Assembly (NCBI GenBank): GCA_035571835.1
Contig: DATNBU010000017.1
Coordinates: forward strand, 106,687-170,686
DNA from: Candidatus Limnocylindrales bacterium
Lineage (GTDB): Bacteria; Desulfobacterota; Binatia; UBA1149; CAITLU01
Length of the DNA: 64,000 nucleotides
Reading direction: 5' to 3'
A program made the position numbers and the translations under genes. Under the pieces are notes generated by a model. The model had not been told where the DNA came from. It did not search any database and saw nothing but the letters and a program-made list of their open reading frames with translations. Below, in pieces: positions 1,897-11,449 of the stretch. Within the stretch, counting starts at the first letter, position 1. Every line of letters starts with the position of its first letter.

Positions 1897-2013
1897 CCAC
1901 TCGGTCTAAATCGACACTCAACTTCCCTTGAGGTAAAGTGTTGTGAAAACATGGCTGCTCTCCTGCGTTGCTGAAGACTCCGTACTGGACGAGTCGGCCG
2001 AGGGGCCGACGAG

Positions 2014-2823
2014 ATGGGCCAGTGGGTCAAGAAAGAATACAGCAACAAACGGATCAACGATGCCGCGGCACAACTTGCGCCTTGGTGGCTTCGTCCAGAC
2101 CGCTCCGCTGCAGACGCAATGGCAGAGGCATACGACGTCGTCGATAACTGGCGGGCTTCACACTCCTTTCCCCTCAACCACTTCCAAGATTCACTGAGGA
2201 AACGGTCACGAAAGGTCGATTCGAATGTCATCGTAGCGCGGCGGCTTAAACGCATGCCGTCCGTGTTAGCAAAGCTCGCTAGGTCTCCCTACCCGGTGAC
2301 AACTATGCAGGATCTAGGCGGCTGTCGCGCGATATTAGGCTCTATGCGTGAGGTTAACGCTGTCCTCGACACATTTATTGGTGAGCCGTCCCTATTTCCG
2401 CTGGAAGGGACTCCGCGTCATTACAATTACATACAGAAACCAAAAGCAGACGGTTATCGAGGTATTCACATCGTTGGCCGCTACAAAGCCAAGTCGCAGC
2501 AAACAAGCTTTTGGAGTGGGTATAGGATTGAGATTCAACTCAGGACCGTCCTGCAGCACGCGTGTTCGACAGCCGTTGAAACAGTCGCGACATTTACTGG
2601 GTTTCCACTCAAATTCGGCAAAGGACCGGATGACTGGAAGCGGTTTTTTGTGCTCGCCTCTTCTGCCTTCGCGATTCTCGAGCGCAGCCCCCTCTGCCCG
2701 GGAGCCCCTGAAGACTCCGAAGAAGATACAGCCTCGACCGCTCCCCTCCCCTTCGTCGTCGGGTCTTTCCCCGCTCGGAGCGCCGCCGAAGCGCCGGACG
2801 TTTACGGTGCCTGGCTCCCTTAA
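2014..2823 (+). CDS. RelA/SpoT-domain nucleotidyltransferase, stand-alone small-alarmone-synthetase-like (toxSAS-like), 269 aa
   Basis: Synthetase-fold motifs are present in canonical order: basic ATP-binding stretch RRLKRMPSVLAKLAR, DLGGCRAIL (the DxxGxR-type G-loop), NYIQKPKADGYRGIHIV, and the diagnostic EIQLRT. No HD hydrolase domain. A GAGGGG RBS-like purine run lies 8-13 nt upstream. The gene sits in the low-GC island. Confidence 0.75.
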   Translation: MGQWVKKEYSNKRINDAAAQLAPWWLRPDRSAADAMAEAYDVVDNWRASHSFPLNHFQDSLRKRSRKVDSNVIVARRLKRMPSVLAKLARSPYPVTTMQDLGGCRAILGSMREVNAVLDTFIGEPSLFPLEGTPRHYNYIQKPKADGYRGIHIVGRYKAKSQQTSFWSGYRIEIQLRTVLQHACSTAVETVATFTGFPLKFGKGPDDWKRFFVLASSAFAILERSPLCPGAPEDSEEDTASTAPLPFVVGSFPARSAAEAPDVYGAWLP

Positions 2824-3099
2824 AAGCTGAGTCATCATGACTCCCACAGTACATGTTCGTGAAGGATCAGATCGTCGCAAACCTTCTGACCCGGAGACTA
2901 CGGCGGCTTGATGACCGGCGGGCGGCCTGCCCCGGAGTCGGATCGTCGTATGGCAATGCGGCCCCCAGGTGCCTTGCCGACGCCCACAACTGGCCCGGCC
3001 AAGGGGCTTCGGGTTTCTCTTAAGTTGGCCACAGCAGTATGGATCTCAGTAGGTGGTTTTTATCGCACAGGGGACGTATTCCAGCTATGAATCCTGTAC

Positions 3100-3140
3100 A
3101 TTACTTGCCAGCAGTGGCCTTGGCATATATAGAGGCGCGT
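3100..3140 (+). promoter_or_regulatory. Putative sigma70-like promoter (TTGCCA-N15-TATATA) with overlapping TGCCA-N10-TGGCA inverted repeat
   Basis: Read directly in the AT-richer spacer between the RelA/SpoT-like gene and the small ORF. Spacer length is suboptimal (15 nt). Confidence 0.2.
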
Positions 3141-3176
3141 TGACTCTCGCCGACTCGGGCGCATAGGGAAACCGCA

Positions 3177-3362
3177 ATGACCTCCAAGACTGTAATCTAC
3201 TCAAGTCCGCGTCTAGCTGAAGCGGTTGGGAAGAAGAGCGCCACTGCGCAGCAGGGATCATTCGAGGTGCAGATTCGTCGGGTCAGGGATGTGCCAAGAT
3301 ACCTGCGGCGACTCCGGGAAATGAAGGACAGCGCGAAGCATAGCGTTCTGCTCTTCCGTTAG
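3177..3362 (+). CDS. Hypothetical small basic protein (61 aa), candidate cognate partner/antitoxin of the adjacent RelA/SpoT-like gene
   Basis: ORF with a GGGAAA RBS-like sequence 6 nt upstream of ATG, preceded by the candidate promoter. Arg/Lys-rich C-terminus (RRVRDVPRYLRRLREMK). No recognisable family. Confidence 0.3.
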   Translation: MTSKTVIYSSPRLAEAVGKKSATAQQGSFEVQIRRVRDVPRYLRRLREMKDSAKHSVLLFR

Positions 3363-3390
3363 CCCCTCACCCTCCGCGTCTCCTCCTCTC

Positions 3391-4986
3391 ATGCCGCAGC
3401 CATCGTCCGCTCCGCGGCTATCCCCTTCCCTCACTTGCCGCGTCCATTCGATGGCGCGTCCTTTTTCAAATTTCGACTACGTCGAATCCCACTATCAGCG
3501 GGAACCCGCCATTCGTCGCATATTCTCGCAAGCACGAATGCATCATGCCCAATCCTTCGCGGTCGAGGACATCGAAGCAGACGGACTGGTCGCTGACGAA
3601 AACGCGGAAATCCATTCGTTCCTGGCGTCCTACCAAATGACAGGCCTGCAGCGTCTCTCGTTCTGGACCGCTCCCAATGACGCTGTAGAGAATGGAAATA
3701 TCAACAGCGAAAATCTTGTCGGATACGCCGTCGTCAAAAAAGACAGAGTTCCGTCACGACAGAGTCTTGCAAATGGATCATGGCATGTTTTCGAGTCGGT
3801 AATTCGGAAATACCCGGATCGACACAATTACATACCAGCCAATCCCAAATTCCCCGTAGTTTTCGGAACCAGACAGTTCCAGCTGCAAGGGGCTCTCTAT
3901 TGCCAACAAAACGGTTTGAACAAATCTTGTGCTCAGGTCGCGATTCGAAGTTTACTAGCCACGATCTCACCTGAACTCGATATTTCGTATTCGCAGTTGA
4001 ACGCGATCGCTCGCAACTATCCGCCGCTGACGCCAAGCGAAGGGCTCAGCGTTCAACAGATTAGTGGAATATTTGATAAGCTAGGAATGAAATATACGGC
4101 AATCGAATACGGTGAAGACGAATCGAGTAGCGGTGGTAGTGACAGTCCAACTGATCGCGCGGCCTTCCCTTACCAGAAGTTTCTTTACGCGGGAGTCGAG
4201 GCTGGCGCCGGAGCGTTGCTTGGATTTCGGCGCGATGCGGCAGAGCCCGCCGAACGTTCTCATATCATCCCATTCTTCGGCCATACATTTAACAGCGATA
4301 CTTGGGTTGTGAATGCAGATTCTGGCTACTTCTCAATCGGCGAGGCAATACGATACATCCCCAGCGATGCTTGGGTGAACAGTTTCATCGGTCATGACGA
4401 TAACTACGGATCTAATTTCTGCGTTCCGCGTTTGTACGTAAAACCACAAAACGTAGGGTACGTGCTCGCACTGCATAAGGCAGGATTTGGAACTAGTGGT
4501 ATTGAGGCCGAAGCAATAGGGAGTGAGTACGTTTATGCGCTACTGGGCGTAGAGACGATTAAGGATTCAACAAATCCTTGGCTCAGAAGGCTAGTCGCTT
4601 TTGCGGACCAACAGCGCGTCGTAATACGTGCAGTACCACTTACTCGAGATGAATATGTGTCACATCTGAATGCTGCTCAGGACTGGGAATGGAATCGAGA
4701 GCACTCCTCTACGCGTGAAGTAATGAGAGCCCATCTACCGGAGCGACTTTGGATGATAGAGGTTTCTCTACCGGAACTCTTCCCAGCAAATCATCGAAAA
4801 CTGGGAAGCATACTATTGAATGGGGACGGAGAGTTCGGGGAAGATCTTGACCTCTCCGAGTTCGTCTTTGCCCAATTTCCTTCGATAATCGTCTTCGCTC
4901 GTGGCTTGAGCGCAGGTGGCACTCCGGAATTCACTTTCTCCGAGAGCAACCTCAAATCACATATCCCGGTTTATCCGGGCGAGTAA
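3391..4986 (+). CDS. Hypothetical protein, 531 aa, no recognisable family (possible papain/C39-like Cys-His core is speculative)
   Basis: Long uninterrupted ORF in the low-GC island with coding-like codon periodicity. Alternative in-frame starts at 3451 (MARPF) and further downstream. No convincing RBS at 3391, so the start is uncertain. Confidence 0.6.
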   Translation: MPQPSSAPRLSPSLTCRVHSMARPFSNFDYVESHYQREPAIRRIFSQARMHHAQSFAVEDIEADGLVADENAEIHSFLASYQMTGLQRLSFWTAPNDAVENGNINSENLVGYAVVKKDRVPSRQSLANGSWHVFESVIRKYPDRHNYIPANPKFPVVFGTRQFQLQGALYCQQNGLNKSCAQVAIRSLLATISPELDISYSQLNAIARNYPPLTPSEGLSVQQISGIFDKLGMKYTAIEYGEDESSSGGSDSPTDRAAFPYQKFLYAGVEAGAGALLGFRRDAAEPAERSHIIPFFGHTFNSDTWVVNADSGYFSIGEAIRYIPSDAWVNSFIGHDDNYGSNFCVPRLYVKPQNVGYVLALHKAGFGTSGIEAEAIGSEYVYALLGVETIKDSTNPWLRRLVAFADQQRVVIRAVPLTRDEYVSHLNAAQDWEWNREHSSTREVMRAHLPERLWMIEVSLPELFPANHRKLGSILLNGDGEFGEDLDLSEFVFAQFPSIIVFARGLSAGGTPEFTFSESNLKSHIPVYPGE

Positions 4987-5017
4987 TCGTTCCGACAGCT
5001 AGGCATCACAACACCGC

Positions 5018-5773
5018 TCATTCCGAATCGCCCTGACGGTCCGCGGGCGCCGCAGGCCGCGGCTGCGCGAACAGCTCGGCGAGCTCCTGCTCGCTGAATC
5101 GGTGCTCGACGTCGGTTTTCCCGAACCGCGTCACGGTGCGGTCGCCGTCCGGCTCGACGGCTTCCATGCGGTCGACGTGCGCGCCGTGGCCGGTCATGTC
5201 GAAGTACGAGATCATGCGCTCGAGCGGCATCGAGCGCGGCGACAGGTGCAGGTGCCACTCGCTTCCGCCGGCCTGCGCATCGCCCGCATCGTGCGGCGTT
5301 TCGCTGTATTCGGCGCGGTAGAGCTCCTTCAGACGCGCCTCGTCGCCGTTGAACAGCACGACGAAGCTGTCGACGATCTGGCGCGCGATCGGGCTCGACG
5401 ACAGATCCAGCGCCTTGCTGCCGGTCGCTTCCTCCATGCGCACCTTGTCGCCGTCGACGACGAGTCGCGACCGCGACGGGCTCACGACGACGCGCACGAA
5501 ACGATGCGGCGGAATGAAGTAAATCGTCCCCGAAGATTCGAGCGGCGCCGACAGCAGCGCAAGCTCCTTCGTTTCGGTGAACTCGGCGACGACGCCGGGC
5601 GACGCGCGCATCGCCGACAGCATCGACGACAGATCGTGGACGGCCGCGGGCTCGGTCGCCGCGGCCGGCTCGGCCAGAGCGAGCGCAGCTGGTTCAATGC
5701 CGGCAAGGAATGCCGAGCCGCTGAAACCGAGTGCCGCGATCACGCCGCGAGCCGCCGCCGATAGCGCCGCCAT
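5018..5773 (-). CDS. LolA-like outer-membrane lipoprotein carrier family protein (aryl-polyene cluster type)
   Basis: ORF 5018..5938 trimmed to internal Met (MAALSAAARGVIAALGFSG signal-like N-terminus). Size (~250 aa) and position next to thioesterase/exporter match LolA-like proteins of APE clusters. Confidence 0.65.
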   Translation of the reverse strand: MAALSAAARGVIAALGFSGSAFLAGIEPAALALAEPAAATEPAAVHDLSSMLSAMRASPGVVAEFTETKELALLSAPLESSGTIYFIPPHRFVRVVVSPSRSRLVVDGDKVRMEEATGSKALDLSSSPIARQIVDSFVVLFNGDEARLKELYRAEYSETPHDAGDAQAGGSEWHLHLSPRSMPLERMISYFDMTGHGAHVDRMEAVEPDGDRTVTRFGKTDVEHRFSEQELAELFAQPRPAAPADRQGDSE

Positions 5774-5813
5774 TCGCGAAACCCAGGCCAGCCGTCGAAG
5801 CTCGAGCTGTTGC

Positions 5814-6224
5814 TCAGCCACCGATGCGCTCGACAATGCCGGGCGGCGTCTCCAGCAGCAGCCGTCCTTCGAGATCGGTGGTCGCAAGGATCGTGTGGCC
5901 GCGCGCCGCGCGCCGCCCCGTCGCGATGTTGGTGACATCGTAGAGGATCCGGATGCGATGGCGGAGGTCGCCGAACCACGCGGAGACGCGCACGTTGTCG
6001 CCGTAGCGAAGCGCGGACGTGTAGCGGCAGTGGCTCTCGACGATCACGAACCGGTAGCGCGGCCCGATGATGTCTCCGGAGTCGAGGCCGACGCTGCGCA
6101 GCAGTCGCGTGCGCGCGATCTCGAGGTACTTGTAATAGTGTCCGTGCCAGACGATGCCGAGCCCGTCGATGTCGTGAAACGGAACCTCGAGCTCGATCGA
6201 CGTCTCGCGCAGCTTGTCGGTCAT
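5814..6224 (-). CDS. 4-hydroxybenzoyl-CoA thioesterase-family (4HBT/YbgC-like hotdog) acyl thioesterase
   Basis: Hotdog-thioesterase pattern in MTDKLRETSIELEVPFHDIDGLGIVWHGHYYKYLEIART. The listed ORF (TTG at 6323) is trimmed to the internal ATG. Confidence 0.75.
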   Translation of the reverse strand: MTDKLRETSIELEVPFHDIDGLGIVWHGHYYKYLEIARTRLLRSVGLDSGDIIGPRYRFVIVESHCRYTSALRYGDNVRVSAWFGDLRHRIRILYDVTNIATGRRAARGHTILATTDLEGRLLLETPPGIVERIGG

Positions 6225-6246
6225 TCCGGTGTCTTTGCCGGTGTGT

Positions 6247-7827
6247 TCACGCAGGTCCGGGCTCGGGCAGCTCGAGATCGATCGGCAGACCGTCGCTGCG
6301 CAGCAGCTCGAGCACGGCCGCAATGTCGCCGTCCTGCCGGCGATCCTGCTCGAGTGGCGGCACGCGGCGCCGAACCGCGTCGTGCAGCGTCGCTACGGCT
6401 TCAGGGACCGAGCCGCCGCTTCGCATGCGGAGGTCGACGGCCTGGCACGCGGCCAGCAGCGTAATCGTTGCGACCGTTTCGGCGAGCTCGACCACGCGAC
6501 GGGCTTCGCGCGATGCGAGCGTACCCATGCTGACCTTGTCCTGGTTGTGCGACTCGGTGCTGCGGCTGAAGACCGCAGCGGGAAGACTCGTCTTGGCCGC
6601 TTCGGCCGCGAGCGCCGACGCCGTGATCTGCATGGCCTTGAACCCGTGATGCGACACGCGCGGCGATGCGACCAGATTGGCCGGAAGACCGCCGCTGGTC
6701 TCCGGCAGGCACAGCAGCACGAGCTGGCGGTCGAGGAGGTCGGCCGCCGAAGCCATCGCGCCCTTGAGCGCATCGAGCGCGAAGACGACGTGCCCGCCGT
6801 AGAAATTTCCGCCGTGCAGCACGCGGCCGGATTCGGGATCGATGACCGGATTGTCGTTGACGCCGGCGATCTCGATGTCGAGCACTCGCCTCGCGAGCGC
6901 GCATGCATCGACGAGCACGCCGAGCACGTGCGGAGCGCAGCGCACCGAATAGCGGTCCTGCAGGCGAAGCGGCTCCGGGCTGGGGCCGCCGGCGAGGAAC
7001 GCGCGGATCCAGCTTCCGACTTCGACCGTACCGGCATGCGGCTTGAGGCCGAGAACCGCGTCGTCGAAGTGCTCGGCGTTGCCGAGCGTGGCCGCGCTCG
7101 TCATCGCGGTGATCGCCGCCGCGAGCTTCGCGAGCCGCTCGGCGCGCACCAGCACGAGGCTCGCGATGCCGGCCATCACGCTGGTGCCGTTCATCAGCGC
7201 GAGGCTTTCCTTGGGAGCCAGCACGAGCGGTGCAATTCCGGCCGCGGCGAGCGCATCGCGCGCGGGCACCGTCTGACCGCTGACGACGGCTTCGCCTTCG
7301 CCCGCCAGCAGCCCGGCGACATACGCGAGCGGAGTCAGGTCACCGCTCGCGCCGACCGAGCCTTCTTCGGGAATTCGCGGCAGCACGCCGCGCGCGACCA
7401 GAAGCGCCAGATGCTCGAGCACCACCGGGCGGACCGCCGAGTAGCCGCGGGCAAGCGACGCGAGACGCACCGCAATGACCGCCGAGGCTTCGGTGGGGTC
7501 GAGGATTCGTCCGGTTCCGCAGCCGTGAAAGCGGAACAGGTTGCGGGCGAGATCGGCCTGCAGGTGCTCGGGGACATCGTTTTCGACCGATGCGCCGACG
7601 CCGGTGGAAACCCCGTAGACGGGTTCCCCGGCCGACAGGCATCGCTCGAGCACGGTGCGCCCGGCTTCGAGGCGGGCAAGGAATGCGGGGTCGGCGCTGA
7701 TCGCCGGCTCGGCCAGACCGAACGCGATCGAGACGACCTCGTCGACGCCGACCAGGTCCGACCCGAAGACGACGCGTGCTGCAGCCGGCACACCCGCCGC
7801 GGCTGCCTCGCTGGTACGGGCCGTCAT
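6247..7827 (-). CDS. Aromatic amino acid ammonia-lyase (HAL/TAL/PAL family) with MIO-forming Ala-Ser-Gly triad
   Basis: GSVGASGDLTPLAYVAG contains the ASG MIO precursor. Also MNGTSVMAG and NDNPVID motifs. Start trimmed to MTARTSEAAAAG (527 aa), a typical HAL/TAL size. Confidence 0.85.
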   Translation of the reverse strand: MTARTSEAAAAGVPAAARVVFGSDLVGVDEVVSIAFGLAEPAISADPAFLARLEAGRTVLERCLSAGEPVYGVSTGVGASVENDVPEHLQADLARNLFRFHGCGTGRILDPTEASAVIAVRLASLARGYSAVRPVVLEHLALLVARGVLPRIPEEGSVGASGDLTPLAYVAGLLAGEGEAVVSGQTVPARDALAAAGIAPLVLAPKESLALMNGTSVMAGIASLVLVRAERLAKLAAAITAMTSAATLGNAEHFDDAVLGLKPHAGTVEVGSWIRAFLAGGPSPEPLRLQDRYSVRCAPHVLGVLVDACALARRVLDIEIAGVNDNPVIDPESGRVLHGGNFYGGHVVFALDALKGAMASAADLLDRQLVLLCLPETSGGLPANLVASPRVSHHGFKAMQITASALAAEAAKTSLPAAVFSRSTESHNQDKVSMGTLASREARRVVELAETVATITLLAACQAVDLRMRSGGSVPEAVATLHDAVRRRVPPLEQDRRQDGDIAAVLELLRSDGLPIDLELPEPGPA

Positions 7828-8059
7828 CGTGCGACGTATAGGGCGGATACCGGCCCGAATCGAGCCGTCCGGGCCCGTCCGGGATGCGGCGCCACGAACG
7901 GCCGACGGCGGGCCGCAACTGATCGATTCGCGCGGTGCTGCAGGCCACAAACGCGCCGCAGGCCGTCGCGATCGGCCTTCGTTTTCCGCAGGAGATGAGG
8001 TATCGAAGCGGGTGGCAACGTCGCCAGGCGTCGACTGGTTCGAGGTGGAAACGAAAAGC

Positions 8060-8965
8060 ATGCGGCATGTGACGCTCGAGCGGCCCATCCGAGCGCACGC
8101 TGACCAGCCGGCCGCACGCGCGACCGGCGAAAGCGGCCGGTCGCTGTCGGTGCGCGGACCCTCATCGGATCGAGATGCCGCGTCCGGAGCCCTGGCCGCA
8201 GGCCGTCGGTACTGGCGGCAGATCCGCCTCGCATGCTCGTTTGCCCAGTTCGGGGTGACTGCGCTCGCGGTTGCGTTCGTCGTCGCACCGGTCGTGCGCC
8301 TCTCGGCGGCCTCGAGCGAGCAGGCCGAGATGGCGGTGCAGCGCGCGATCCGGCGCGCCTATGCGTTCTCGGTCGCGCTCTGGAGGCTCGTCGGGATCTT
8401 CCGGCTGGACGCACGCGGCCTGGCCGGGCTCGCGGACTGCGGCCCGTGCATCGTCGTCGCGAACCATCCGACGCTGGTCGACGTGGTCCTGATCGGATCG
8501 GTCCTCGAGCAGATGGACTGCATCGTCAATGCGGGCTGGACCGCGAAGAGCCCGTTTCTGGCCCGCGCCATCGAGGTGGCCGGGTACGTGCGCAACGACG
8601 GCGGCGTTGCGGTCGTCGAGCAGTGTGCGCGGCGCCTGCGTTCGGGACGGCGGCTGCTGGTGTTCCCGGAAGGCACGCGGTCGCCGTGGGGAAGTTTTGG
8701 AAAGTTCCATCGCGGTGCGGCGCATATCGCGCTCGCCAGCGGCGCTCCGCTGGTTGCGGTGGCGATCCGCTGCCGCCCGCGGATGCTTGGAAGCGGCCGC
8801 AAGTGGAGCGACACCGACGGCCGCCGGCCCGCCTACGAGCTCGCGATTGCCGGCCGGCTCGATCCGGCCGACTACGCCGGCATGACGACGCCGCTTGCCG
8901 CACGAAAGATGACCGACGACCTGCTCAGGATTTTTCTCGAGGAGCCCAATCTTGCAGACGCGTGA
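8060..8965 (+). CDS. PlsC-family lysophospholipid/1-acylglycerol-3-phosphate acyltransferase
   Basis: NHPTLVDV (NHxxxxD) and FPEGTRS motifs. Start chosen at the first Met after divergence from the ammonia-lyase; earlier alternative starts cannot be excluded. Confidence 0.75.
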   Translation: MRHVTLERPIRAHADQPAARATGESGRSLSVRGPSSDRDAASGALAAGRRYWRQIRLACSFAQFGVTALAVAFVVAPVVRLSAASSEQAEMAVQRAIRRAYAFSVALWRLVGIFRLDARGLAGLADCGPCIVVANHPTLVDVVLIGSVLEQMDCIVNAGWTAKSPFLARAIEVAGYVRNDGGVAVVEQCARRLRSGRRLLVFPEGTRSPWGSFGKFHRGAAHIALASGAPLVAVAIRCRPRMLGSGRKWSDTDGRRPAYELAIAGRLDPADYAGMTTPLAARKMTDDLLRIFLEEPNLADA

Positions 8966-9221
8966 CGAACTGACCGCAGACATCAAGGCCATGATCGTCG
9001 AAGTGCTCGCGCTCGAGGACATCCGGCCGGAGGAGATCGAAACCGACGCTCCGCTGTTCGTCGAAGGCCTCGGGCTCGATTCGATCGATGCGCTCGAGCT
9101 CGCGATGGGCCTCGAGGAAAAGTACGGCGTAATCATCACCGACGACCCCGAACGCAACGAGAAGATCTTCGCGTCGGTCGGCGCGCTCGCCGATCTCGTC
9201 ACGGCCGAACGCACCCGCTGA
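8952..9221 (+). CDS. Acyl carrier protein
   Basis: 89 aa, GLDSIDALEL phosphopantetheine-attachment motif. TTG start with GGAG 5 nt upstream, overlapping the end of the acyltransferase gene. Confidence 0.8.
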   Translation: MQTRDELTADIKAMIVEVLALEDIRPEEIETDAPLFVEGLGLDSIDALELAMGLEEKYGVIITDDPERNEKIFASVGALADLVTAERTR

Positions 9222-9225
9222 GGCC

Positions 9226-9474
9226 ATGACGCGCGAGCAACTCGAAGACGAGCTTCGCTCGATCCTGGTCGCCGAGTTCGAGCTCGCTCCCGAGAAGATC
9301 ACGCGCGAGGCACGCCTGGTCGAAGATCTCGATCTCGACAGCATCGACGGCGTCACGATCGTGGTTCGTCTCGAGTCGCGCCTGCGCGTGGTGATCGCCG
9401 ACGAGGAAATCCAGAAGATGCAGGCCGTGGGCGACATCGTCGACGCGCTCGCCGCGCGGCTCGGCATGGCCTGA
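9226..9474 (+). CDS. Acyl carrier protein (second copy)
   Basis: 82 aa, DLDSIDGVTIV motif. GAGG RBS upstream of the ATG. Confidence 0.8.
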   Translation: MTREQLEDELRSILVAEFELAPEKITREARLVEDLDLDSIDGVTIVVRLESRLRVVIADEEIQKMQAVGDIVDALAARLGMA

Positions 9475-9484
9475 TGCCGGGACT

Positions 9485-11449
9485 TTGCCTTCGACGTTGC
9501 CGAAGTCGCCGATCGAGCCGACCGTTCCGGCGGGGCCGACGTTGCCGGGCATAGTGGCAAGCCGGCCGCTGGTCGGACTTCTGCGCGAGGCGCCGGACGC
9601 GAGTCGCATCGTCGCCTTCGGACAGACACCCGACCAGAGTGCGAGTCACGCGCGGCTGCTGGCGGACGTGTTCGCTCTTGCGTCGCATCTCGAAGGCGAT
9701 CGCGGGAAGCGCTGGCTCATCGAGTCCGAGGACGCCTACCGCATTGCGGTCTCGCTGCTGGCGGCGGCTGTCGCGGGCGCGCGCATCGCGCTGCCTCCCA
9801 ATCTTCAGCCGGGAACGCTTCGCGAGCTCCGCGCGGAGTCGGATCGCGTATTCGTCGATGACGCAGGGAAGCCTTCCGACGCCCGCACGCTCGATCCGCT
9901 CGCGCCTGGTCGCGCGGTCGCGAACGAAGCCCAAAGCACGAGTGCCACCTCAACGGCGGTAGAAACGGCAGCGCGCACCGGAATTGAGATCGACAGGCGC
10001 GTTGCGCTCGTCGAGTTGTTCACGTCCGGCACGAGCGGTCCCGGAAAGCGCATCACCAAGGCGCTGTGCCACCTGGAAGACGAAGTTGCCGAGATCGGCG
10101 AGCTGCTCGCAGTTGCCGGGCATCGTGGCGGCCGGACCGCGAGCGTGCTCGCGACCGTCTCGGCCCATCATCTGTACGGATTGCTGTTCCGCGTGCTGTG
10201 GCCGCTCGCCCGGCATTTTGCATTCTGCCGGCAGAGCGTCCTGCTTCCCGACGAGCTGCTGGCTCGCTGCGCGGAAACCGGCGGCGCGGTCGTCGTCTCG
10301 AGCCCTGCCCATCTTCGCCATCTCGCTGCGCTGCCGCGCGCGCGCGAGCATGCCTCCGCAATCCTCGAGATCATTTCTTCGGGCGGGCCGCTCGAGTCGC
10401 CCACGGCACTCGCGCTCGAAGACGCGTTCGGGCGCGCACCGGTCGAGATCTTCGGCTCGACCGAAACGGGCGGAGTTGCGCTCCGCCGGCAGCGCGCGTC
10501 GGATCCCGATCCTTGCTGGACGACGTTTCCGTCCGTAACCGCAGAGATCGACGACGCGAGCGGCGCGCTCGTCGTCACGTCTCCGTTCGTGACTGCGCCG
10601 GACAGTGCCGCCACCGAATCGCAAGCTGCCGATTCGCCCGAGCCGGGGACGATGCGCATGGGCGATCGCGCAGAGCGCGAAGGCGACGGCTTCCGGCTTG
10701 CCGGCCGCGCCGACCGCATTGCCAAAGTCGGCGAGAAGACGCTGTCGCTGCCGGAAATCGAAAGCTTCCTCGCCGCGCACGAGCTCGTCGAAAATGCCGT
10801 CGCTGCAACGTACCCCGCAAAAAGCGGCGCGCGTCTCGGCGCCGTCGTGGTTCTGTCGCGCGAAGGGCGCTTGCGGCTCGCGCGGGAAGGACGGCGCGCA
10901 GTGCAGCGCATCCTCGCGGCGCATCTGGCCGAGCGCTGGAATCGCGTGGCGCTGCCGCGCCGCTGGCGTTTCGTTGACGCACTGCCCGTCGACACGCGCG
11001 GGAAGCTTGCGCAGCGCACGGTCGAACAAGAGCTGGCCCGGCCGGTCGAGCCGCCGCGCGAGCCGCTTCTTCTCGATGAACAGAGCAGTGCCGGTCCGGG
11101 ACTCCTTGCGAGCACGCGAGGCGTCGGCCACCTTCCGGACACGAGAAGCGTGCTGGTGCGCGAGCTTGTCGTACCCCGCGATCTCGCCTACTTTGACGGC
11201 CACTACGACGAGTTCCCGCTCGTGCCGGGAGCCGTGCAAATCCACTGGGTCATGCTCGCACTCGGCCGCATCGCCGGCCGGCGCGTCACCGCCGAGCGGA
11301 TGGAAGCCGTCAAGTTCCGAAACGTTTTGCGTCCAGCCGAGCTGTTCACGATGCAACTGGCCATCGATGAAGCCTTCTCTCATGTGACCTTCACGCTCGG
11401 CCACGGATCGCGCGTGTTTTCGAGCGGACGCATCACGCTCGAGCGATAA
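9485..11449 (+). CDS. AMP-dependent synthetase/ligase fused to C-terminal FabA/FabZ-like hotdog dehydratase
   Basis: Adenylation motifs TSGTSGPGKR and GSTETGG. The C-terminal DGHYDEFPLVPGAVQIHWVM is FabZ-like. The real start may be the in-frame GTG at 9554. Confidence 0.8.
   Translation: MPSTLPKSPIEPTVPAGPTLPGIVASRPLVGLLREAPDASRIVAFGQTPDQSASHARLLADVFALASHLEGDRGKRWLIESEDAYRIAVSLLAAAVAGARIALPPNLQPGTLRELRAESDRVFVDDAGKPSDARTLDPLAPGRAVANEAQSTSATSTAVETAARTGIEIDRRVALVELFTSGTSGPGKRITKALCHLEDEVAEIGELLAVAGHRGGRTASVLATVSAHHLYGLLFRVLWPLARHFAFCRQSVLLPDELLARCAETGGAVVVSSPAHLRHLAALPRAREHASAILEIISSGGPLESPTALALEDAFGRAPVEIFGSTETGGVALRRQRASDPDPCWTTFPSVTAEIDDASGALVVTSPFVTAPDSAATESQAADSPEPGTMRMGDRAEREGDGFRLAGRADRIAKVGEKTLSLPEIESFLAAHELVENAVAATYPAKSGARLGAVVVLSREGRLRLAREGRRAVQRILAAHLAERWNRVALPRRWRFVDALPVDTRGKLAQRTVEQELARPVEPPREPLLLDEQSSAGPGLLASTRGVGHLPDTRSVLVRELVVPRDLAYFDGHYDEFPLVPGAVQIHWVMLALGRIAGRRVTAERMEAVKFRNVLRPAELFTMQLAIDEAFSHVTFTLGHGSRVFSSGRITLER

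Follow-up and report, generated by a model that had tools for sequence, protein, structure and literature searches.

A mobile two-gene cassette, possibly a toxin-antitoxin-like conflict module, encoding a small basic protein and a predicted papain-like cysteine enzyme

The papain-like fold supports protease, deamidase, transglutaminase, acyltransferase and de-conjugating chemistries, all of which employ the same Cys-His-Asp/Asn set. Among the bacterial systems to which the locus described here may be compared, the staphopains are secreted zymogens, while the staphostatins are beta-barrels of approximately 107 aa which are encoded downstream. No characterised type II toxin representing a papain-like enzyme of 520 aa was found in the literature searched, and nothing relevant was retrieved from that literature concerning PDC-S33, papain-like protease toxins in toxin-antitoxin (TA) or defence systems, or the motifs of the protein family under study.

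In the current work, a stretch of 64,000 nucleotides from a Candidatus Limnocylindrales bacterium (contig DATNBU010000017.1 of assembly GCA_035571835.1; hereafter named “the window”) was analyzed with respect to a gene of unassigned function that is located in a low-GC island, the latter encompassing a truncated toxSAS gene (the NTase gene), a 437-nt spacer and a two-gene cassette. The relevant features are given below by their coordinates in the window, followed by strand and description:

1897..5017, no strand assigned: low-GC island (approximately 50-60% GC versus 69% in the flanks), located between convergent host genes.
2014..2823, + strand: neighbouring gene outside the cassette, being a 3'-truncated CapRel-like toxSAS (RelA_SpoT), assigned by profile and homology.
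3177..3362, + strand: small partner gene, 61 aa, basic (pI 11.3), with a predicted helix-loop-helix and extended tails.
3391..4986, + strand: large gene, 531 aa, a predicted cytoplasmic three-domain enzyme of a family without annotation.
3391..3846, + strand: N-terminal alpha/beta domain (approximately aa 1-152), delineated by secondary structure, pLDDT and invariant columns.
3847..4485, + strand: predicted central papain-like (clan CA) cysteine peptidase-like domain (approximately aa 153-365), assigned by Foldseek searches of PDB and BFVD.
3907..3930, + strand: Q173 (candidate oxyanion-hole Gln) to C180 (candidate nucleophile), motif QQNGLNKSCAQVAIRSLL, codons checked.
4261..4299, + strand: H291...G-H298-TFN-x-D303, two candidate catalytic His residues and a candidate Asp.
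4393..4404, + strand: H335-D336-D337-N338 (HDDN), third candidate His and candidate acidic/amide third residue.
4486..4983, + strand: C-terminal alpha/beta domain (approximately aa 366-531), delineated by model and alignment, with the motif LWMxEVSxPxLFPANxRKLGE.

The open reading frame at 3391..4986 on the + strand starts with ATG, encodes 531 aa and contains zero internal stops, while its homologues cover 94-99% of its length at 40-50% identity, from which it follows that it represents a real and undisrupted gene; a spurious or disrupted ORF was rejected on this same basis. A preceding reading made from the nucleotide sequence alone (hereafter the sequence-only reading) had reported a 531-aa ORF co-located with an NTase gene, and this observation is borne out. 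The identical protein has been deposited as a 511-aa hypothetical protein of a ‘Candidatus Limnocylindrales’ MAG, with a start at M21 (nt 3451). In the homologues, approximately 20 residues precede the PFSNF motif, and the APRLSPS segment of the window protein aligns with their HRLVSP at equal spacing; the start at 3391, corresponding to 531 aa, is therefore the better call, and the 511-aa NCBI start was rejected because the additional N-terminal segment is retained in homologues.

At the sequence level, the 531-aa protein is devoid of matches in Pfam, NCBIfam, PADLOC and PDB sequences, in agreement with the statement of the sequence-only reading that no motif of a known family could be recognised. 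The same applies when the search is extended to 44 family members against Pfam (E <= 1) and NCBIfam, which returned zero matches, and to phmmer and family-profile searches of PDB sequences, which were likewise blank. PADLOC-DB v2 contains no match for either the 531-aa protein or the small ORF, the only PADLOC match among the 44 members being that of one member to PDC-M41A at E 0.07, which was judged to be noise, while the sole PHROGs match of the window protein was phrog_1302 at E 0.09. When clustered at 50% identity, the family falls into at least 1,419 clusters, and it was found in at least 140 GTDB species, nearly all represented by MAGs, with a patchy spread across at least 10 phyla between which identity is uniformly 40-50%, its hosts including PVC bacteria, Desulfobacterota, Chloroflexota and others. 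It was not found among 50,697 phage and 72,556 plasmid records, nor in IMG/VR.

The AlphaFold2 model of the large protein (pLDDT 86.6, pTM 0.86) consists of three domains. When this model was compared to the PDB by means of Foldseek, clan-CA enzymes constituted most of the top 36 or so matches, with probabilities of up to 1.00, target TM scores of 0.5-0.7 over approximately 200-250 columns and E values of 2e-3 and weaker. Matches of the central domain included staphopain, ComA PEP, PCAT1, ZUFSP, phytochelatin synthase (Alr0975, PCS-like), UfSP and IdeS, in addition to Mug105, a CdiA-CT toxin and a T6SS effector, the best-scoring ones being the endopeptidases staphopain and C39. A fold search of BFVD agreed with clan CA and included AvrRpt2-like papain proteases. 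The central domain is thus predicted to have a papain-like clan-CA cysteine-peptidase fold, the match to peptidases being structural only, with none obtained by sequence or profile. The N-terminal domain, which was covered by no match in the Foldseek searches of PDB and BFVD, is rich in invariant polar residues (PFSNF, IRRLFS, GYAxxKxD, WHVFE and HxHN).

Conservation across 233 family members points to a candidate active site within the central domain. C180 is invariant (233/233) and is the first residue of a predicted helix (residues 160-172 in the 511-aa numbering, in which this Cys is C160), and is preceded by seven residues by Q173, which is present in 230 of the 233 members; a Cys that opens a helix with a Gln located a few residues upstream is the arrangement expected of clan CA. 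In the model, H291 (232/233), H298 (231/233) and D303 (219/233) share a single beta-strand (270-280, 511-aa numbering), whereas the HDDN motif (H335, 232/233; D336, 232/233; D337, 230/233; N338, 227/233) is placed where the strand 309-316 (511-aa numbering) ends. The catalytic His would be one of three near-invariant residues, i.e. H291, H298 or H335, and Gln173, His291, His298, His335 and Asp336/337 are each at least 98.7% conserved. Both strings on which the sequence-only reading had based its self-declared weak suggestion of a Gln-Cys...His papain/C39-like arrangement are present in the protein, namely QLQGALYCQQNGLNKSCAQVAIRSLL (containing Q172, Q173 and C180) and GHTFNSD (containing H298), and the suggestion gains support from the clan-CA fold matches together with the invariant C180 and the conserved Gln, His and Asp residues, the His of GHTFN included. 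Based on the model, the 531-aa protein is accordingly placed in a new and unannotated family of predicted papain-like cysteine enzymes.

The gene that is consistently associated with this family is a small ORF, which immediately precedes the large gene at 77 of the 82 loci; as regards the loci beyond these, three are interrupted by a contig end, weak and divergent copies were seen in two, and one is devoid of the small gene. A hidden Markov model constructed from 74 ORFs located upstream at other loci, i.e. without the window sequence, matched the window ORF at 3177-3362 end to end (E 5e-12), this being the sole match among 746 ORF segments of the window. The distance from the stop of the small gene to the start of the large gene has a median of 15 nt, with an overlap of 1 or 4 nt in 11 of 76 pairs, and small genes next to the large gene are also annotated by independent gene callers. 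The 61-aa and 531-aa genes form a tightly linked two-gene operon, conserved as a pair across many phyla.

The small protein of the window carries the motif YSSPRLAEAV...VQI...DVPRYLRRL...SVLLFR, the last part of which constitutes its C-terminal end, and an AlphaFold2 prediction of low confidence (pLDDT 67) places helices at residues 11-26 and 38-54. Its ORF had been missed by the sequence-only reading. A profile of 58 upstream ORFs retrieved 28 unannotated proteins of approximately 60 aa, and no recurrent family was obtained when the 58 small proteins were searched against Pfam. Length is conserved at approximately 60 aa, including the extreme C-terminus, while no column of the alignment reaches 90% conservation, so that the small protein does not possess a fixed cleavage motif; an F-G following helix 1 is approximately 70% conserved and is missing from the window copy. 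With a mean identity of 27%, as compared to 44% for the large protein, the small protein evolves faster, and the two display charge complementarity (median pI of 10.0 and 6.2, respectively). The divergence of one protein is correlated with that of the other (Mantel r = 0.80, with 0 of 2000 permutations as high), in line with co-evolution, although such a value would also follow from simple co-inheritance. Inspection of the N-termini by eye revealed no signal peptide in either cassette protein.

The cassette has a GC content of about 50-56%, versus 69% in its flanks, and is horizontally mobile. No tRNAs, significant direct repeats, integrase or Rfam matches were found at the island of the window or its boundaries. 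An all-vs-all BLAST of flanking ORFs and a Pfam search of 244 neighbours did not reveal any further gene conserved together with the pair: the Pfam families on each side of the cassette number more than 100, none of them being encountered in more than three loci, ABC_tran occurs twice among 118 upstream and twice among 126 downstream neighbours, and no metabolic neighbour was found to recur. Elsewhere, the cassette is accompanied by a Bil system with TIR/AAA_23, a type I R-M system, integrases, a transposase, RHS, a deaminase and a capsid gene of prophage origin. Nine contexts were examined when that of the window is counted, and six of them contain genes of the integrase, transposase, R-M, Bil, TIR, RHS, prophage or CapRel type; of eight long contexts, two consist of housekeeping genes only. 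Two homologous cassettes adjoin ubiquitin-like conjugation (Bil/E1-E2) defence operons, which are apparently complete systems themselves. In gene arrangement and distribution, the pair thus resembles type II TA modules, being adjacent, co-directional, close or overlapping and co-inherited, with a patchy mobile distribution and a variable context.

The toxSAS gene which precedes the cassette in the window (RelA_SpoT, E 1.8e-11; PADLOC PDC-S33, E 1.8e-73) specifies a product with 32% identity to residues 9-228 of CapRel-SJ46 and 49% identity to fused relatives of 356-357 aa, and retains the CapRel ATP-site and G-loop residues (equivalents of R79, R116 and Y155). Its homology to full-length relatives stops near nt 2737, and no remnant of the C-terminal pseudo-ZFD antitoxin/sensor, which corresponds to residues 273-373 of CapRel-SJ46 (PMC9712102), was found in any frame of the window. 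Considering that the N-terminal fragment of CapRel-SJ46 is toxic by itself (PMC9712102), the truncated toxSAS would, if intact, need some neutraliser, and the 531-aa gene is a co-directional neighbour within one common low-GC island; these observations favour the proposal, put forward by the sequence-only reading, that the 531-aa protein is an immunity/neutralising or sensor/effector partner of the NTase, which in this case lacks an antitoxin domain of its own. Against this, not one of the 82 loci at which the 531-aa family is encoded has a RelA_SpoT relative within 6 kb, and the 531-aa gene or cassette is missing from all 5 loci of the closest toxSAS relatives, three of which are full-length fused CapRel-type proteins; in the window, moreover, 353 nt lie between the stop of the toxSAS gene and the start of the small ORF. 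Furthermore, neither a toxSAS-neutralising domain nor any other known antitoxin domain was detected in the 531-aa protein by Pfam and NCBIfam searches or by comparison of the pseudo-ZFD of toxSAS relatives with 3391-4986, and the complete lack of Pfam or NCBIfam families implies that it contains no HD (SAH-like) domain, so that the suggested SAH-like neutralisation found no support. A partnership of the 531-aa protein with the NTase is consequently very improbable, as is a local co-option of the cassette or its small protein for control of the antitoxin-less toxSAS, which we regard as a marginal prospect. The position of the cassette beside the NTase looks incidental, the simplest reading being that the toxSAS is a decayed remnant next to an independent cassette. 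The papain/C39-like part of the sequence-only reading is thus supported and its functional tie to the NTase is not, the conserved partner being the 61-aa ORF; its remark that the large protein exceeds the size of a simple antitoxin was fair, the large protein being a predicted enzyme and the small one the likely regulator.

The best overall explanation, to which we assign an about even chance, is that the mobile pair of a papain-like enzyme and a small inhibitor constitutes a TA-like or abortive-infection-like conflict module. According to this proposal, the small basic protein would bind the acidic enzyme and hold it inactive, in the manner of an antitoxin or a dedicated inhibitor. If the small protein were lost or titrated away, for instance upon phage infection or another stress, this would release the thiol protease, which would then cleave cellular or invader proteins, the cassette thereby acting as a toxin-antitoxin-like or abortive-infection-like module. 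The more specific formulation that the pair represents an undescribed and widespread TA/anti-phage system, the effector of which is a cytoplasmic cysteine protease restrained by the small basic protein, is possible, at a likelihood somewhat short of even.

The small protein may alternatively be a substrate or precursor that is cleaved by a C39-like maturation protease to yield a peptide (a signal, toxin or RiPP-like product), as the leader-peptide peptidases ComA and PCAT1 are among the closest folds and the small ORF is located directly upstream of the protease gene, this being the arrangement of many precursor-protease pairs. The enzyme motif C-A-x-V-A-L-x-S-L moreover appears to resemble the C39 motif, C-G-x-A-A-L-x-M-I, and the partially conserved F-G behind helix 1 could be read in the same way. 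Yet the small protein has neither a conserved double-glycine nor an invariant site, the window copy does not even contain the F-G, the conserved surroundings include no ABC transporter, no modification enzyme and no exporter, and signal peptides are absent from both proteins; conservation of the entire length including the C-terminus fits better with a folded binding partner than with a leader-plus-core peptide, making such processing unlikely. The cassette logic could also be retained with an enzyme that is a deamidase, transglutaminase, acyltransferase or de-conjugating (DUB/UfSP-like) enzyme, all of which are compatible with a papain-like fold, and the presence of the de-conjugating enzymes ZUFSP, Mug105 and UfSP, the CdiA-CT toxin and the T6SS effector among the fold matches, as well as the two cassettes that adjoin ubiquitin-like conjugation operons, would be in line with this. 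We nonetheless consider such chemistry rather doubtful, the top-scoring matches being true endopeptidases and the Bil/E1-E2 adjacency being confined to two loci with seemingly self-complete operons.

A further alternative dispenses with conflict altogether, the large protein being a metabolic or maintenance hydrolase or transferase (phytochelatin-synthase-like or amidase-like) and the small one a transcriptional regulator, chaperone or subunit, in which case the links to defence islands would only reflect that both are accessory genes. The fold match to phytochelatin synthase-like Alr0975, the purely housekeeping nature of some contexts, the absence of the family from the PADLOC, phage, plasmid and IMG/VR collections, and the possibility that a basic small protein binds DNA are all in keeping with such a role. 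It is difficult to reconcile with a patchy cross-phylum spread at uniform identity, with synteny which is limited to the pair and does not extend to any recurring metabolic neighbour, with the strongly atypical GC content in the genome of the window, and with the frequency of mobile and defence genes in the contexts examined, and is therefore held to be improbable.

If confirmed, the conflict-module reading would assign both a fold and a putative active site to a sizeable family whose members are now all annotated as ‘hypothetical’, would define the true functional unit as a two-gene cassette of which the small ORF is often overlooked by annotators, and would place a papain-like cysteine protease among the few protease effectors of bacterial TA and defence modules. 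The family resides almost wholly in uncultured lineages, which are poorly sampled for defence systems. In addition, the analysis corrects a tempting guilt-by-adjacency tie to the CapRel-type toxSAS and flags the latter as an antitoxin-less remnant.

As regards known systems, the neighbouring toxSAS shares its ATP-site and G-loop residues with CapRel-SJ46 and differs in the loss of the pseudo-ZFD antitoxin/sensor, a comparison which concerns the neighbouring gene only. The predicted central domain resembles C39 peptidase domains of the ComA PEP, PCAT1 and LagD type in its fold (3k8u and 5xe9, target TM of approximately 0.7; also 6v9z), in the Gln seven residues ahead of the helix-opening Cys and in a candidate His located at, or close to, the beginning of a hydrophobic beta-strand, but the family has no Pfam Peptidase_C39 match and no fusion or linkage to an ABC transporter, its central domain is flanked by two additional conserved domains of approximately 150 aa each, and the small protein of the cassette does not carry a double-glycine leader. 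The best fold matches of the large protein are staphopains (1pxv, 8oig and 1cv8), and the logic of the staphopain-staphostatin (ScpA/ScpB, SspB/SspC) and SpeB/Spi systems, in which a papain-like protease is combined with a co-transcribed small protein that possibly keeps it inactive in the cytoplasm, may by analogy apply here, although the window enzyme has no signal peptide and its partner is a basic, predicted helical protein of approximately 60 aa encoded upstream. Papain-fold toxin domains of polymorphic toxins with immunity proteins (CdiA-CT, 8ssk; BtaeB-BtaiB, 9jdd) are also among the fold matches, and while the cassette differs from TA systems and polymorphic toxins by having neither homology to catalogued toxin, antitoxin or immunity families nor secretion/trafficking domains, it resembles type II TA and abortive-infection systems in being a translationally coupled pair of which the small protein evolves fast and the enzyme is conserved, with a patchy mobile spread and neighbourhoods of defence genes and mobile genetic elements.

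The uninterrupted ORF of 531 aa described in the sequence-only reading is present at 3391-4986 on the + strand, and both of the strings quoted there, QLQGALYCQQNGLNKSCAQVAIRSLL and GHTFNSD, occur in its translation. The identical deposited protein, annotated as a hypothetical protein of 511 aa from a 'Candidatus Limnocylindrales' MAG, starts at M21 (nt 3451). In homologues, approximately 20 residues precede a conserved PFSNF motif, and APRLSPS of the window protein aligns with the HRLVSP of these homologues at the same spacing. Because this upstream segment is conserved, the ATG at 3391, located only 28 nt past the stop codon of a small ORF (61 aa; 3177-3362, + strand), is preferred as the start and the public one was set aside; residue numbers refer to the 531-aa form unless stated otherwise. 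That no motif of a known family had been recognised holds at the sequence level, since no Pfam, NCBIfam, PADLOC or PDB-sequence match was obtained with the window protein, with 44 members searched singly, or with the family profile, while the sole PHROGs match was at E 0.09.

An AlphaFold2 model of the large protein, built on 44 sequences, was confident (mean pLDDT 86.6, pTM 0.86) and comprises three domains:

Approximately aa 1-152: N-terminal alpha/beta domain
Approximately aa 153-365: central domain
Approximately aa 366-531: C-terminal alpha/beta domain

When this model was compared with the PDB using Foldseek, clan-CA papain-like cysteine peptidases represented most of the top 36 matches; these comprise staphopains A, B and C, the C39 peptidase domains of ComA and PCAT1, ZUFSP and Mug105, the phytochelatin-synthase-like Alr0975, UfSP, IdeS and Mac-1. 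The matches further included three proteins that we regard as papain-fold effectors (a CdiA-CT toxin, a T6SS effector and SpvD). E-values were modest (2e-3 and weaker), with probabilities of up to 1.00 and target TM-scores of 0.5-0.7 over approximately 200-250 columns, such modest scores being expected from a domain of 140-180 aa matching the middle of a 511-aa model. A viral structure library agreed with the papain-like fold, its matches including an AvrRpt2-like papain protease. Residue conservation, counted over 233 diverse full-length members, fits this fold: C180, with which the central helix of the model begins, is present in 233/233 members and Q173, located seven residues before it, in 230/233, while three beta-strand histidines are kept (H291 in 232/233, H298 of GHTFN in 231/233 and H335 of HDDN in 232/233), together with D336 (232/233) and D337 (230/233). 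The earlier, weakly held suggestion of a papain-like Gln-Cys...His arrangement is thus supported by the clan-CA fold matches and by the conservation of Q173, C180 and H298. As modelled, the large product has a papain-like fold, and strong purifying selection acts on its invariant Cys/Gln/His/Asp set.

A word-indexed search retrieved at least 373 homologues of approximately 520 aa with 40-50% identity, all of them unnamed, and an exhaustive profile search retrieved 1,419 clusters at 50% identity (E <= 1e-3), including 592 at <= 1e-30; almost all share the full-length architecture. The large protein is encoded by 140 stretches of GTDB representatives. Its hosts, essentially all of them MAGs, belong to Verrucomicrobiota, Lentisphaerota, Planctomycetota, Omnitrophota, Desulfobacterota, Chloroflexota, Hydrogenedentota, Fibrobacterota, some Gammaproteobacteria and others; the family was not found in deposited phage records, plasmid records or IMG/VR. 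A subset of members (P0165, P0180, P0185, P0188 and P0190) are approximately 610-640 aa long and were matched by the profile in two stretches, which indicates an insertion of approximately 100 aa near profile positions 215-245, a site corresponding to a low-confidence surface loop of the window model (residues 224-230 in 511-aa numbering).

In order to find conserved neighbours of the large gene, 82 homologous loci were fetched. An all-vs-all comparison of their flanking ORFs yielded no conserved large neighbour; directly upstream of the large gene, an ORF of approximately 60 aa is present on the same strand in almost every locus (77/82 by iterated HMM searches; as regards loci outside this count, a contig end cuts three, two have weak divergent copies and one has none). 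When the window sequence was left out of the HMM, a single one of the 746 window ORF segments was matched, namely 3177-3362, end to end with an E-value of 5e-12. Independent gene callers also call the small gene beside the large one, and in Sedimenticola and Thiodiazotropha MAGs the NCBI locus tags of the two are consecutive. The median gap between them is 15 nt (28 nt in the window), with an overlap of 1 or 4 nt in 11/76 pairs. Pairwise identities of the two proteins correlate across loci (Mantel r = 0.80, 0/2000 permutations as high), the small protein evolving faster (mean identity of 27% versus 44% for the large one). The small protein is basic (median pI of 10.0, 11.3 for the window copy) and the enzyme acidic (median pI of 6.2). 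Without a Pfam family, and without any column conserved at >= 90%, the small protein is predicted with low confidence (pLDDT 67) as two helices with extended ends, and its C-terminus is usually one residue past a conserved Phe (54/75 sequences). The two genes constitute a conserved, tightly coupled and horizontally mobile cassette.

The neighbours of this cassette are highly variable, with more than 100 Pfam families per side and none in more than three loci, the commonest being AAA_21, Methylase_S, YgjP-like, Fic and HTH. The context was also inspected on eight long contigs for which annotation had been precomputed; two are purely housekeeping and the others show:

Bil ubiquitin-like system with TIR, AAA_23, MC5 and CTD9 genes
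Type I R-M system
Y1 transposase
Integrase island with deaminase, M78/HTH and E2/E1 genes
Integrase island with RHS and nSTAND3
Prophage capsid gene

In two unrelated loci (L099, 3339-6579, and L087, 12783-15358), the cassette adjoins ubiquitin-like conjugation defence operons (BilA/B/D, or Prok-E2_E and ThiF), and the fold matches of the enzyme include the de-conjugating enzymes ZUFSP and UfSP; this adjacency may be coincidence within defence islands.

In the window, the cassette is part of an island flanked by two host genes (encoding an RND/MMPL-like exporter and a LolA-like protein) that converge on it with their 3' ends and look like part of an aryl-polyene-type biosynthetic cluster interrupted by the island:

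109-1896 and 5018-11449: putative aryl-polyene-type cluster (RND/MMPL-like exporter, LolA-like protein, 4HBT thioesterase, aromatic amino-acid lyase, two ACPs, AMP-ligase fused to ApeI-like dehydratase)
Approximately 1897-5017: island, the only low-GC segment of the 64-kb window
2014-2823, + strand: RelA_SpoT gene (toxSAS, the NTase)
2738-3176: spacer of 437 nt (60% GC), separating the truncated toxSAS from the small ORF

The GC content is 54% for the truncated toxSAS, 60% for the spacer, 56% for the small ORF, 51% for the large ORF and 69% for the flanking genes. No integrase, tRNA or Rfam element is present in the island, and no convincing repeats flank it. The spacer, for which no Pfam match on ORFs and no Rfam match was obtained, could be a scar of the event truncating the toxSAS, or the promoter region of the cassette.

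The RelA_SpoT protein matches PADLOC PDC-S33 (E 1.8e-73) only across profile positions 3-227 of 349, and shares 32% identity with residues 9-228 of the Salmonella phage SJ46 RelA/SpoT protein, CapRel-SJ46. CapRel is a fused toxin-antitoxin, with a tRNA-pyrophosphorylating toxin (1-272), toxic by itself as an N-terminal fragment, and a pseudo-ZFD acting as antitoxin and capsid sensor (273-373) (PMC9712102). The closest relatives (49% identity; L093 and L094) are 356-357 aa long and possess the C-terminal region including a YPNYY motif. Since homology to these relatives ends at approximately residue 241 (near nt 2737), with no trace of the pseudo-ZFD domain in any frame or elsewhere in the window, the gene represents a 3'-truncated toxSAS. 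It retains the equivalents of R79, R116 and Y155 (ATP-site and G-loop residues), and is a dead remnant or else a toxin without an antitoxin, the latter of which would be odd. In two metagenomic relatives (L095 and L096, approximately 3818-4620), the match to the window protein is divided over two pieces in different frames, suggesting that these may be frameshifted or decayed as well.

Taken as a whole, the picture may be that of a small-protein-inhibited cytoplasmic thiol protease with toxin-antitoxin or abortive-infection logic, to which we assign about an even chance. The basic small protein would bind the acidic enzyme and hold it inactive, in the manner of an antitoxin or of a dedicated inhibitor resembling staphostatin; upon its loss or titration, the freed protease would act on host or invader proteins. 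Operon anatomy, rate asymmetry and charge complementarity argue for this model, as do the mobility of the cassette, its defence/MGE neighbourhoods and a small protein in which no cleavage motif is invariant. The small protein might instead be a precursor processed by C39-like maturation, which is unlikely: C39 domains are among the fold matches, but the cassette has neither of the C39 hallmarks, a linked ABC transporter and a substrate with a double glycine. A non-conflict metabolic or maintenance role for the enzyme, with the small protein as regulator, is considered improbable, the housekeeping contexts speaking for it and the defence/MGE contexts against it. It is similarly doubtful that the cassette logic is kept with a non-proteolytic chemistry (deamidase, transferase or de-conjugating enzyme), a reading which overlaps the inhibited-protease model.

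The sequence-only proposal that the large protein is a partner of the NTase is hardly credible: no RelA_SpoT relative is present within 6 kb of the cassette in the 82 loci, the cassette is missing from all five loci with toxSAS relatives, and the adjacency is seen in the window alone. The one point left in its favour is a truncated toxSAS that seems to be catalytically intact and lacks a visible antitoxin. The cassette is independent of the NTase, and two accessory modules in one island are the simplest explanation of the adjacency.

At the level of predicted fold, the central domain is grouped with clan-CA peptidases; Pfam and PDB-sequence searches placed it in neither C39, C47 nor another sequence-defined family, and no description of the large-protein family was found in a literature search. 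The cassette represents a testable, well-supported prediction for a sizeable unannotated family of mostly uncultured bacteria, the biochemical logic of which would not astonish specialists. Its closest functional analogies are the protease-inhibitor operons staphopain-staphostatin and SpeB-Spi, type II toxin-antitoxin modules, and papain-fold toxins paired with immunity proteins, from all of which the cassette differs in the size and fold of the partner, the order of the genes, the cellular location and the domain architecture.
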